From: a virus
Taxonomy: Duplodnaviria; Heunggongvirae; Uroviricota; Caudoviricetes
Direction: 5' to 3' (one strand)
Virus record (IMG/VR): IMGVR_UViG_2744054872_000002
Length of the DNA stretch: 7,793 bases
Part shown: positions 1-7,793 of the stretch, one piece after another
Layout of the letters: each line of letters starts with the position of its first letter
Position numbering within the stretch: the first letter of the stretch is position 1
Program-made: the position numbers and the translations under genes
The notes under the pieces: generated by a model
Seen by the model: only the letters and a program-made list of their open reading frames with translations
Database searches by the model: none
Told to the model about the DNA's origin: nothing

Positions 1-469
1 TTAATACCCCAGCGCGATAAAACAACAATCTTCGGTGCCCTCTCCGGATGGCGACCAGTTCTGAATACTGATATGCGTTCTGCTGGCAATACGCACATTC
101 ATCGCGGCATTGTAGCCAGATGTTCCACGGTTTCCGGTCGCAAATAAGCCTGCATAGGGAAAAGCAAATGGTAAGGCATATCCAGCATCAGCTCCCTTTT
201 GTGTTGCCACCGTTCCCCACTGCAACATAAGTTTCACCGGGTTTCCTGTCGTCGCAATGCATGGAATGTAGATGTAGCCATTCCCTGACATCATTGACCT
301 GAAGCTGTCTAAATCCAGTAACTTCGAGGCATTATCTGCTCCAACATCTCGTGTTGCGGCGGTCCCTAACTGGAGCGCATTTCGGAAGGCTGATACATCA
401 GAAATATCAGCTCCATTAGCCGATTTCTGCATAGCTCCGGAGGCTTTATTTATCGTTTCTCCCAAACCA
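1..469 (-). CDS. Tail-fibre variable C-terminal (receptor-binding) cassette inside an invertible segment; silent orientation, lacks the constant N-terminal part (outside window)
   Basis: The minus-strand frame is open from 510 to a TAA stop at 3-1. The translation carries a QWG...LPFAFP motif and a Gly/Ala/Thr-rich C-terminus, typical of Mu S / P1 S / lambda Stf-type fibre tips. It begins at the crossover site next to the invertase gene and reads away from it, as Mu S'v does relative to gixR and gin. The ATG at 510 is probably incidental, since the real protein would be made only after fusion to the constant fibre part. Confidence 0.6.
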
Positions 470-482
470 ACGTTTAAGAAAA
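457..482. other. gix/hix-like 26-bp recombination crossover site (imperfect 12-bp inverted half-sites around a central AA)
   Basis: Sequence TTCTCCCAAACC-AA-CGTTTAAGAAAA. The left half-site matches the remembered Mu gix half-site TTATCCAAAACC at 10 of 12 positions, and the right half-site (reverse complement TTTTCTTAAACG) at 8 of 12. It has the AAACC-NN-GGTTT-like core and lies about 56-80 bp upstream of the invertase start codon. Confidence 0.6.
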
Positions 483-537
483 TGCAGAGGTAACAGCTAA
501 CTGGCATCATCCCCGGTTTTTATTCAGGGGGATAATC

Positions 538-1131
538 ATGCTTATTGGCTATGTACGCGTGTCAACAAATGACCAGAACACGGAATTGCAGCGTAACGCG
601 CTGGAGTGCGCAGGATGTGAGCTGATTTTTGAGGATAAAATCAGCGGCACTAAGTCCGACCGACCGGGACTGAAAAAACTGCTCAGGACATTATCGGAGG
701 GGGATACACTGGTGGTCTGGAAGCTGGACAGGCTGGGGCGTAGTATGCGGCATCTGGTCATTCTGGTTGAGGAACTGCGCGAACGCGGCGTTAATTTTCG
801 CAGCCTGACGGATGCTATTGATACCAGCACGCCGATGGGGCGTTTTTTCTTTCATGTGATGGGTGCCCTGGCTGAAATGGAACGAGAACTCATTGTCGAG
901 CGGACACGCGCCGGGCTGGAAGCGGCCAGAGCTAAAGGTCGTATTGGTGGCAGACGTCCGAAGCTCACCGCGAGTGAGTGGGAACAGGCAGGACGGTTGC
1001 TGGCTGCGGGTGAATCACGTCAACGCGTGGCGCTGATTTTTGATATTGGCCTGTCCACGCTCTATAAAAAATTCCCCTCATCAGCGACAAAGAATAAATT
1101 GTGTCATCCCTTAGCCAACCGGGACAAATAG
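538..1131 (+). CDS. Site-specific DNA invertase, small serine recombinase (Gin/Hin/Pin/Cin family)
   Basis: 197 aa. N-terminus MLIGYVRVSTNDQ carries the catalytic Ser in the YxRVST motif. Also present are GDTLVVWKLDRLGRS, MGRFFFHVMGALAEMERELI and a C-terminal GRIGGR plus helix-turn-helix region, nearly collinear with Gin, Hin and Pin as I recall them. Shine-Dalgarno AGGGGG lies at 525-530 before the ATG at 538. Confidence 0.93.
   Translation: MLIGYVRVSTNDQNTELQRNALECAGCELIFEDKISGTKSDRPGLKKLLRTLSEGDTLVVWKLDRLGRSMRHLVILVEELRERGVNFRSLTDAIDTSTPMGRFFFHVMGALAEMERELIVERTRAGLEAARAKGRIGGRRPKLTASEWEQAGRLLAAGESRQRVALIFDIGLSTLYKKFPSSATKNKLCHPLANRDK
621..682. promoter_or_regulatory. Candidate Fis-dependent recombinational enhancer within the invertase 5' coding region
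   Basis: A perfect 9-bp inverted repeat GCTGATTTT / AAAATCAGC (621-629 and 637-645) is followed by an A6 tract in GACTGAAAAAACTGC (668-682); both contain G-N13-C 15-mers with AT-rich centres. In Hin, Gin and Cin systems the enhancer lies inside the first ~150 bp of the invertase gene. Exact Fis sites cannot be fixed by eye. Confidence 0.3.
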
Positions 1132-1190
1132 CCTGACATCTCCGGCACAACTGAAAATATCACTCACCCATTAACCACGGAGTTAAACGG

Positions 1191-2381
1191 ATGAGTGACT
1201 ATCATCACGGCGTGCAGGTGCTGGAGATTAACGACGGCACCCGTGTCATTTCCACCGTATCCACTGCCATTGTTGGCATGGTCTGCACGGCCAGCGATGC
1301 GGATGCGGAAACCTTCCCCCTCAATAAACCGGTGCTGATTACCAATGTGCAGAGCGCAATTGCAAAGGCCGGTAAAAAAGGCACGCTGGCGGCGTCGTTG
1401 CAGGCCATCGCCGACCAGTCAAAACCGGTCACCGTTGTTGTGCGCGTGGAGGACGGCACCGGCGACGACGAAGAAACGAAACTCGCGCAGACCGTTTCCA
1501 ATATCATCGGCACCACTGACGAAAACGGTCAGTACACCGGACTGAAAGCCCTGCTGGCGGCGGAGTCGGTAACCGGTGTTAAACCGCGTATTCTTGGTGT
1601 GCCGGGACTGGATACCAAAGAGGTGGCTGTAGCACTGGCATCAGTCTGTCAGAAGCTGCGCGCTTTCGGGTATATCAGCGCATGGGGCTGTAAGACCATT
1701 TCCGAGGTGAAAGCCTACCGCCAGAATTTCAGCCAGCGTGAGCTGATGGTCATCTGGCCGGATTTCCTCGCATGGGATACGGTCACCAGTACCACCGCCA
1801 CCGCGTATGCCACCGCCCGTGCGCTGGGGCTGCGCGCTAAAATCGACCAGGAGCAGGGCTGGCATAAAACGCTGTCCAACGTCGGGGTGAACGGTGTTAC
1901 CGGCATCAGCGCATCTGTATTCTGGGATTTGCAGGAGTCCGGCACCGATGCTGACCTGCTTAACGAGTCAGGCGTCACTACGCTGATTCGTCGCGACGGT
2001 TTCCGCTTCTGGGGTAACCGTACCTGCTCCGATGACCCGCTGTTCCTCTTTGAAAACTACACCCGCACCGCGCAGGTGCTGGCCGACACGATGGCTGAGG
2101 CGCACATGTGGGCGGTGGACAAGCCCATCACTGCAACGCTGATTCGCGACATCGTTGACGGCATCAATGCCAAATTCCGTGAGCTGAAAACAAACGGCTA
2201 TATCGTGGATGCGACCTGCTGGTTTAGCGAAGAATCCAACGATGCGGAAACCCTCAAGGCCGGAAAACTGTATATCGACTACGACTATACACCGGTGCCT
2301 CCTCTCGAAAACCTGACCCTGCGCCAGCGTATTACCGATAAATACCTGGCGAATCTGGTCACCTCGGTTAACAGCAATTAA
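1191..2381 (+). CDS. FI: Contractile tail sheath protein (P2 gpFI-like)
   Basis: 396 aa, the length I recall for P2 FI, with N-terminus MSDYHHGVQVLEINDGTRVISTVSTAIVG. GGAG Shine-Dalgarno lies at 1179-1182 and the gene is first in the FI-FII-E-T-U-D order. Confidence 0.95.
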   Translation: MSDYHHGVQVLEINDGTRVISTVSTAIVGMVCTASDADAETFPLNKPVLITNVQSAIAKAGKKGTLAASLQAIADQSKPVTVVVRVEDGTGDDEETKLAQTVSNIIGTTDENGQYTGLKALLAAESVTGVKPRILGVPGLDTKEVAVALASVCQKLRAFGYISAWGCKTISEVKAYRQNFSQRELMVIWPDFLAWDTVTSTTATAYATARALGLRAKIDQEQGWHKTLSNVGVNGVTGISASVFWDLQESGTDADLLNESGVTTLIRRDGFRFWGNRTCSDDPLFLFENYTRTAQVLADTMAEAHMWAVDKPITATLIRDIVDGINAKFRELKTNGYIVDATCWFSEESNDAETLKAGKLYIDYDYTPVPPLENLTLRQRITDKYLANLVTSVNSN

Positions 2382-2968: not shown

Positions 2969-3244
2969 ATGAACAAAGAAAATGTCATTACCCTGGACAA
3001 TCCGGTCAAACGTGGTGAGCAGGTTATCGAACAGGTCACGCTGATGAAACCCAATGCCGGGACGCTACGCGGTGTCAGTCTGGCTGCGGTTGCAAACTCC
3101 GAAGTCGATGCACTGATTAAGGTGCTGCCGCGCATGACGGCACCGATGCTGACCGAGCAGGAAGTCGCCGCGCTGGAACTGCCTGACCTTGTGGCGCTGG
3201 CCGGTAAGGTGGTCGGTTTTTTGTCGCCGAACTCGGTGCAGTGA
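2969..3244 (+). CDS. E: Tail assembly chaperone gpE (zero-frame product)
   Basis: 91 aa, MNKENVITLDNPVKRGEQ..., ending at TGA 3242-3244. It sits between the tube and tape-measure genes as in P2. Confidence 0.9.
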   Translation: MNKENVITLDNPVKRGEQVIEQVTLMKPNAGTLRGVSLAAVANSEVDALIKVLPRMTAPMLTEQEVAALELPDLVALAGKVVGFLSPNSVQ

Positions 3245-3396
3245 CGTTTCCGAAAAATCTCTCGGTCGATGACCTGATGGCGGATGTGGCAGTGATATTT
3301 CACTGGCCGCCATCAGAACTGTATCCCATGAGCCTGACCGAACTCATCACATGGCGCGAAAAGGCGCTCCGGCGAAGCGGAAACACGAATGAGTAA
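2969..3396 (+). CDS. E+E': Tail assembly chaperone gpE+E', produced by programmed -1 ribosomal frameshift near 3217-3223
   Basis: After a -1 slip on TTTTTTG the frame starting at 3223 reads VAELGAVTFPKNLSVDDLMADVAVIFHWPPSELYPMSLTELITWREKALRRSGNTNE and stops at TAA 3394-3396, overlapping the T start at 3389. This is the same architecture as P2 E/E' and lambda G/GT. Confidence 0.8.
3217..3223 (+). promoter_or_regulatory. -1 frameshift slippery heptamer T_TTT_TTG
   Basis: Zero-frame codons are GGT TTT TTG (3215-3223). The T6G run lies 19 nt before the E stop codon, and the -1 frame is open from this point to 3396. Confidence 0.8.
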
Positions 3397-7574: not shown

Positions 7575-7793
7575 ATGTTTCATTGTCCTTTATGCCAGCA
7601 TGCCGCACATGCGCGTACAAGCCGCTATATCACTGACACGACAAAAGAGCGTTATCACCAGTGTCAGAACGTGAATTGCAGCGCCACGTTCATCACTTAT
7701 GAGTCGGTACAGCGATACATCGTGAAGCCGGGAGAAGTCCACGCCGTGAGGCCGCACCCGTTGCCGTCAGGGCAGCAAATTATGTGGATGTAA
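7575..7793 (+). CDS. ogr: Late-gene transcription activator Ogr (Cys4 zinc-finger, P2 Ogr / P4 Delta family)
   Basis: From the internal ATG at 7575 the product is 72 aa, MFHCPLCQHAAHARTSRYITDTTKERYHQCQNVNCSATF..., with a Cys-X2-Cys-X22-Cys-X4-Cys arrangement. The ORF-track start at 7512 is a TTG that overlaps the putative -35 element and has no ribosome-binding site, so 7575 is the likely true start. The stop is at the window end. Confidence 0.9.
   Translation: MFHCPLCQHAAHARTSRYITDTTKERYHQCQNVNCSATFITYESVQRYIVKPGEVHAVRPHPLPSGQQIMWM

Follow-up and report, generated by a model that had tools for sequence, protein, structure and literature searches.

The question raised by this locus is whether a 26-bp imperfect palindrome at positions 457–482, next to the gene for a serine recombinase, is a site at which part of a tail-fibre gene is inverted. 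The DNA analysed, a stretch of 7,793 nucleotides that we refer to as the window, had been read from its letters alone as containing a crossover site of the Hin family with a central AA dinucleotide. Window 1–1200 is 100% identical to three complete genomes; one of them (NZ_CP032892.1, the 19.2-kb prophage stretch of which we call L001) matches all 7,793 bases exactly, with window position 1 at L001 9001. The window belongs to a P2-like (Peduovirus) prophage of E. coli, and its genes run in the order fibre C-terminal fragment, serine recombinase, sheath FI, tube FII, E/E′, tape-measure, U, D and ogr. It starts at the stop codon of the fibre cassette (1–3, minus strand) and ends at the ogr stop codon (7791–7793). 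Because it is cut at gene boundaries, the partner site and the assembly gene of the cassette are absent from it. The features of the window on which the analysis turns are the following.

1–468, minus strand: silent C-terminal tail-fibre cassette (cassette A) with a gp53-like C-terminal domain (Pfam PF21882, Gp53-like_C).
457–482: crossover site, invertase-proximal (right), 26 bp, TTCTCCCAAACC-AA-CGTTTAAGAAAA; 25 of 26 bases as in the e14 and pro483 sites; offset kept in relatives.
457–468: inner half-site, which travels with the invertible segment; its minus strand codes for G-L-G-E.
469–470: central dinucleotide AA, the strand-exchange point as judged from L001 against the loci L002, L094 and L095.
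471–482: outer half-site CGTTTAAGAAAA, which remains with the invertase gene in flipped loci.
483–537, plus strand: spacer from the site to the invertase start, presumed to hold the promoter and ribosome-binding site of the invertase (putative).
538–1131, plus strand: serine DNA invertase of 197 amino acids with catalytic Ser9 (Pfam Resolvase, 2e-52, and HTH_7).
556–627: putative Fis-dependent recombinational enhancer, by homology to the annotated P1 cin enhancer.

The dyad symmetry of the site is by itself poor evidence. Its halves agree with each other at 8 of 12 positions, and agreement of at least 8/12 is reached at 29 of the 7,767 window positions; with one mismatch, two occurrences of the pattern AAACC-NN-GGTTT are present in the window, where 0.32 would be expected. 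The 26-mer itself, TTCTCCCAAACCAACGTTTAAGAAAA on the plus strand, has no other match in the window at up to three mismatches (0 expected, 200 shuffles). The family half-site consensus is more telling. When both halves were scanned with TTCTCNNAAACC, 457–482 was the sole hit in the 7.8-kb window, and L001 gave exactly two positions, against 0.045 expected in shuffles. The same scan retrieved exactly the annotated cixL and cixR of P1 and the two boundaries of the Mu G segment, and it returned two sites apiece in e14, pro483 and Fels-2; the sequences of the reference sites are those in the annotated records of P1, Mu and K-12. As the sole consensus hit in the window, where 0.045 are expected per 19 kb, the half-site match at 457–482 is not chance. 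At the specified consensus positions its two halves score 10/10 and 8/10. The known sites compare with it as follows.

K-12 e14, beside pinE: TTCTCCCAAACC-AA-CGTTTATGAAAA, 25/26 identical to the window site.
Phage pro483, proximal site: the same sequence as in e14, 25/26 identical.
P1 cixR: TTCTCTTAAACC-AA-GGTATTGGATAA, a weaker match.
Mu gix: TTCCTGTAAACC-GA-GGTTTTGGATAA, a weaker match.

By these alignments the window site is of the e14/Pin type and not of the Mu type. The original prediction had likened its left half to Mu gix, which is roughly right (10/12 against one gix half-site, TTATCCAAAACC, and 8/12 against the other), but the nearest relatives are the pix site of e14 and the site of pro483. 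In a set of one genome per species, the exact 26-mer had 0 matches, and a degenerate 26-mer was found in two E. coli genomes and one Shigella genome and in nothing else. The site does lie inside an open minus-strand frame, as had been proposed: the ORF 510..1 stays open through it, and the site codes for ...NVGLGE....

The second of the two consensus positions in L001 is the partner site. It had been expected upstream, and it lies there, outside the window, within the tail-fibre gene; it was found by eye, from the reading frame and by the half-site scan. Its surroundings in L001 are listed here.

L001 7109–8371, plus strand: tail-fibre gene H.
L001 7923–7948, within gene H: partner site TTCTCACATACC-TT-CAATTGGGAGAA, inverted relative to the window site.
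L001 8374–8607, plus strand: ORF of 77 amino acids, which follows the cassette now fused to H.
L001 8588–8998, minus strand: tail-fibre assembly gene, directly after the window cassette.

The two cores are 1,534 bp apart, which gives an invertible segment of 1.5 kb, and the central TT of the partner is complementary to the AA of the window site. Compared with the reverse complement of the window site, however, the partner is identical at only 18/26 positions, a divergence too great for similarity searching: at up to three mismatches, a search for a reverse-complement partner of the 26-mer returned nothing beyond the site itself in the window or in the 19 kb of L001, and generic repeat finding did not report the pair. 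The lack of such a reverse complement in the adjacent sequence had been named as grounds for rejecting the site, but this test gives a false negative here, since the search comes back empty despite a real partner. It misleads because the recombinase reads half-sites, and a pair of sites needs only matching central dinucleotides. The inner half-site of the partner has CAATTG beside the core, with three core-proximal departures from the GGTTT consensus, and the asymmetry of the pair could make the switch slow or biased. Both central dinucleotides occupy codon positions 2–3 of the fibre frame (ctt in H, gtt on the minus strand of the window), and an exchange between them would therefore fuse the constant and variable parts of the fibre in frame, as had been foreseen, with ...GLLTYL|GLGETINK... 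as the predicted product.

In the present orientation, the other cassette forms the end of gene H and the window cassette is silent. The latter is promoterless and is expressed only once inversion fuses it to H. The 77-residue product of the ORF behind the expressed cassette, annotated as hypothetical, is unlike the typical assembly protein of ~136 amino acids, and the 3′ end of this ORF overlaps the convergent assembly gene by 20 bp. A third candidate site, TTCTCCCAAATG-GT-ATGATTCGACAG at L001 8040–8065, was rejected for having no second half-site and a mismatched core. This look-alike sits in the expressed cassette, in direct orientation to the window site, and is probably a coding coincidence (I-L-P-N-G).

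If the two sites recombine, genomes carrying the segment in the flipped state should exist. Predicted junctions were built for an exchange at the central dinucleotide and searched in complete E. coli genomes. The junction J1, which joins the N-terminal part of H to the window cassette, was recovered at full length from 78 E. coli genomes, with identity reaching 98.7%; a full-length J2, which joins the other cassette to the invertase side, is present in 37. In NZ_CP144928.1 (L002), both junctions occur within one prophage. A BLAST comparison of L001 with L002 gave a collinear left flank (98.2% identical), an inverted segment corresponding to L001 7935–9473 (99.6% identical) and a collinear right flank (94.6% identical). 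The sites in the two loci read as follows.

L001 (window): left site TTCTCACATACC-TT-CAATTGGGAGAA; right site TTCTCCCAAACC-AA-CGTTTAAGAAAA.
L002 (flipped): left site TTCTCGCATACC-TT-GGTTTGGGAGAA; right site TTCTCCCAATTG-AA-CGTTTATGAAAA.

The inner half-sites have been swapped in L002 and the outer ones kept, with the inner half of the window site appearing as GGTTTGGGAGAA in the left site, in gene H. Two further loci, L094 and L095, have a P2-like backbone with flanks that are only ~80% identical to those of L001, and they carry the same segment, 99.35% identical and flipped. The step in identity falls exactly at the two sites, the right one of which reads TTCTCCCAATTG-AA-CGTTTAAGAAAA; the outer half-site beside the invertase is thus CGTTTAAGAAAA in these loci and CGTTTATGAAAA in L002. 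By sequence, L094 and L095 together represent a second, independent case of the flipped segment. In the comparisons of L001 with L002, L094 and L095, the switch of partners falls between window positions 468 and 471. The two parental sites differ on either side of the core (position 12, C/G; position 15, C/G), and because these mismatches flank it on both sides, the exchange is confined to the 2-bp core at 469–470. The predicted junction at the central AA has thus been borne out, by the comparison of genomes and not from reads. The predicted fusion protein, consisting of the N-terminal part of gene H and the window cassette, matches the annotated tail protein of L002 at 428/432 positions, stop included.

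These comparisons show that both orientations exist among E. coli genomes and that the exchange occurs at the central dinucleotide. For the prophage of the window, the flipped state is predicted to read H-TT-GGTTTGGGAGAA... at one end and ...CAATTG-AA-CGTTTAAG at the other, switching at 469–470. Judged by sequence comparison, 457–482 is confirmed as a genuine crossover site of the Pin/Cin/Gin/Hin type in a P2-like E. coli prophage.

The conservation of the site was assessed in relatives, taken as 79 IMG/VR contigs that encode invertase homologues. In 69 of the 79, a site lies 79–86 bp upstream of the invertase ATG, the distance in the window being 81 bp; nine of those 69 sites equal the window 26-mer exactly and 42 are the e14 variant. 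A distal candidate was found in 53 relatives, with a reverse-complementary core in 50 of them and a median segment of 1.85 kb. When 68 distinct flanks were aligned on the core, mean column conservation was 0.49–0.56 in the cassette, 0.97 across the 26 bp (inflated at the ten specified positions per half, because the sites were chosen by consensus) and 0.87 in the next part of the spacer (+14 to +43). The cores co-vary between partners, being AA/TT in the clade of the window and GA/TC in Fels-2 and Mu.

Several relatives have unusual arrangements. In Peduovirus magyaro (NC_041848.1; L010, 3471–3512), the invertase-side site TTCTCCCAAACC-AA-GGTATGCGAGAA is a perfect reverse complement of the left site of the same locus. 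Next come GACC and the customary outer half CGTTTATGAAAA, so that 16 bp of gene H sequence appear to have been inserted at the core. The invertase coding sequence is shortened to 495 nt as well, and the arrangement may be an aberrant product of recombination. In L003 and L004 (5065–5172), the invertase is reduced to a 108-nt remnant and the window cassette is fused to H, which leaves it locked on. In L096 (222–2524), an IS21-family element takes the place of gene H and the left site, and the orphan right site is identical to that of the window. Finally, the IMG/VR contigs L015, L051 and L057 have an additional site, directly oriented with respect to the invertase-proximal site (TTCTCCCAAACC-AA-GGTTTTCGAGAG is one example), with three sites in L051. 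This suggests multi-site, multi-cassette switches like that of the three-repeat P2-like prophage of EPEC (PMC4272514).

The alternatives to an inversion site have to be judged against this evidence. The 26-mer could have been kept merely because it encodes the GLGE motif of the tail fibre, with the cassettes replaced horizontally or by homologous recombination. The inner half does code for L-G-E, similar L-G-x-A-A-x-R-D-V-G motifs recur in fibre proteins, and the sharing of one cassette by P1-like phages and diverged P2-like backbones shows horizontal exchange. However, the 2 bp of identity between flanking mismatches are far too short for RecA-dependent recombination. Moreover, the outer half is non-coding for the fibre in either orientation and yet has a fixed offset from the invertase in 69 loci, and the cores of the partners co-vary, with AA/TT here and GA/TC in loci of the Fels-2 type. 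We therefore regard this alternative as highly improbable. A functionless chance palindrome, for which one could cite the modest dyad of 8/12 and the 29 window positions that are as good, has a negligible probability. It is refuted by the fact that no other window position matches the family consensus (expectation, 0.045 per 19 kb), by the agreement with the e14 site at 25/26 bases and by the conserved position relative to the invertase.

A further possibility is that the site is a fossil, the switch being frozen in this prophage because the partner has become too degenerate or the invertase is not expressed. The partner matches at only 18/26 positions and has CAATTG in its inner half where the consensus is GGTTT, no promoter consensus was found upstream of the invertase, and frozen relatives do exist, as illustrated by the invertase remnants of L003 and L004 and by the loss of gene H and the left site in L096. 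The three genomes that are 100% identical to window 1–1200 also share one orientation. Against a fossil, finished assemblies give the majority orientation only, and the invertase has an intact ORF whose product can be aligned to Gin and PinE with no gaps. The CAATTG half-site occurs in both places: L001 has it fused to H, and in L002, L094 and L095 it adjoins the invertase. Its presence in both positions means that this half-site has taken part in exchange. A frozen switch is accordingly improbable. In our assessment, this P2-like prophage very probably carries a two-state inversion switch, with 457–482 as one of its two recombination sites.

The enzyme that would act on these sites is encoded by an intact ORF, the start of which is 81 bp from the start of the site. 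Residues 1–182 align without gaps to Mu Gin (PDB 3UJ3; E = 1.6e-94, ~78% identity), and identity is 87% to PinE, 78.5% to Cin and 85% to the Fels-2 invertase. In Hin, Q151, R154 and L155, together with a basic helix B, make the contacts with Fis and the enhancer, and the Fis-contacting residues of helix 1 are conserved only among DNA invertases (PMC3798978). The invertase of the window keeps the Q-x-x-R-L motif in helix 1 (Q150, R153 and L154, in EQAGRLL) and the basic residues K46, K47 and R50 of helix B.

In the P1 record, the Cin enhancer is annotated at nt 19–90 of cin; the positional equivalent in the window, 556–627, is identical at 58/72 positions and begins ~86 bp from the core of the window site. 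It also codes for the conserved catalytic N-terminus, so its conservation is not diagnostic of an enhancer. Against the Fis consensus GNNYRNNWNNYRNNC, which specifies seven positions, the 15-mer GCGCAGGATGTGAGC at 608–622 has no mismatch, and each of the five invertase genes that were compared scores 7/7 there. A weak G-N13-C element is present at 559–573, and the starts of the two Fis candidates are 49 bp apart. In the Hin system, the Fis-bound enhancer of 65 bp lies ~100 bp from the nearest hix site, with 47 bp between the centres of its Fis sites (PMC3798978); the spacing of the candidate 15-mers is unlike that reported for hin, which counts against the enhancer assignment. By homology, the 5′ end of the invertase gene may hold a Fis enhancer.

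In the spacer that precedes the invertase ORF, the motif TGGCATSAT occurs at 502–510 (TGGCATCAT here and TGGCATGAT in Mu and Fels-2). The motif is invariant in 6/6 aligned loci, from this prophage to Mu, though the surrounding spacer diverges, and it overlaps a terminator-like hairpin at 499–518. Possibly it belongs to the promoter of the invertase or is a regulatory element; a promoter scan upstream of the invertase found no sigma-70-like promoter.

From these elements, a mechanism can be proposed. A dimer of the invertase, encoded 81 bp downstream, would bind the two 12-bp half-sites of the window site, and a second dimer would bind the partner in gene H, 1,534 bp upstream. The dimers would pair into a tetramer, probably with Fis on the enhancer in the invertase 5′ coding region. 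The tetramer would then cut both sites with a 2-bp stagger at AA/TT (469–470), rotate and religate, leaving the segment inverted. The segment comprises two convergent cassettes, each made up of a fibre C-terminus and a downstream gene. Inversion would swap the last ~145 residues of the fibre, the presumed receptor-binding tip, for the ~155 encoded by window 468..1 on the minus strand, and it would also bring the assembly gene at L001 8588–8998 into the expressed orientation. We infer the dependence on Fis and the enhancer, the 2-bp staggered cut, an effect on host range and ongoing activity in this strain.

Switches of this kind are already known, as is this class of P2-like prophages, and the window holds a textbook crossover site. 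The closest parallel in the sites themselves is e14, which likewise has a constant fibre gene, two convergent cassettes each with a downstream gene, and an invertase with the site at the same offset upstream. However, e14 is a defective lambdoid element, whereas the present prophage is P2-like (Peduovirus), and the two have different cassettes and different constant fibre parts. They also differ at one base of the outer half-site (window 476, A versus T) and in the distal site, which is CTCTCGAAAACC-TT-GGTTTGGGAGAA in e14 and TTCTCACATACC-TT-CAATTGGGAGAA here. P2-like phages with an invertible fibre, such as pro483, Fels-2 of Salmonella and the P2-like prophages of EPEC E2348/69, have the invertase between the tail-fibre genes and sheath FI, as here. 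The pro483 phage carries other cassettes, and its invertase region has 97% DNA identity to the one described here; Fels-2 has the central dinucleotide GA/TC in place of AA/TT. Inversion in e14 and in P2-like prophages of EPEC has been demonstrated by whole-genome sequencing and PCR, and one EPEC P2-like prophage has three inverted repeats and four variants (PMC4272514), whereas only two sites were found here.

The Cin/cix system of P1 and the Gin/gix system of Mu share with this locus the 26-bp sites, the AAACC-NN-GGTTT cores and in-frame Sc–Sv fibre fusions. Their enhancer lies within the 5′ part of the invertase coding sequence, as the P1 record annotates it, and the invertase described here is ~78% identical to each of theirs. 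In P1, however, cixL overlaps the 3′ end of cin, whereas the site described here is upstream of the invertase gene; Mu has a GA/TC core, unlike the AA/TT of the window; and the segments of P1 and Mu measure 3–4 kb, against 1.5 kb here. The sites of Mu form a perfect 34-bp inverted repeat. The Hin/hix system of Salmonella flagellar phase variation also combines two 26-bp sites with a serine invertase. In contrast to the present locus, in which the invertase is outside the segment and coding 3′ ends are swapped, the hin gene lies inside the segment and is inverted along with a promoter.

The same sites may bound modules that pass between phages. The window cassette is present, 97–99.8% identical, in the Punavirus vB_EcoM-813R1 (L011, 3547 and 5457) and in phage phi458. 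In the P1-like phage it is fused to the fibre gene at the same crossover point, and the outer half of the other site, TTTTCTTAAACG, is the reverse complement of CGTTTAAGAAAA and thus identical to that of the window. Fibre-tip modules, delimited by crossover sites, seem to be exchanged among P1-like and P2-like phages. The 99.35% identical module within flanks of ~80% identity, with the step at the sites, and the P1-like fusion at the same point led us to consider whether crossover sites are also portable junctions for the exchange of fibre tips between unrelated phage lineages, possibly through rare intermolecular reactions of the invertase. We regard this extension as unlikely. Fibre mosaicism at such sites is, as a general idea, already present in the older literature.

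The switch bears directly on how the locus is annotated. RefSeq has a coding sequence at 1–510 (minus strand), a 'gp53-like domain-containing protein', with its start ATG at 510, beyond the crossover site and in the spacer. This start is probably an artefact of the ORF staying open across the site. The real coding unit is the cassette, 468..1, and the free-standing call appears systematic, as it recurs in L002, L094 and L095. Elsewhere in the window, the heptamer T_TTT_TTG occurs in the zero frame at 3217–3223, near the end of the gpE-like ORF (2969–3244), which the E′ ORF (3241–3396) overlaps. The E and E+E′ tail assembly genes of P2 have a known −1 frameshift, and the heptamer fits a frameshift of this type.

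Beyond correct annotation, the significance of the finding is small, and it opens no new question. For the prophage itself, the analysis means that two alternative fibre tips are encoded, which is relevant to annotation, to the prediction of host range and to prophage typing, and knowing where the inversion occurs helps to avoid misassembly calls at this locus.
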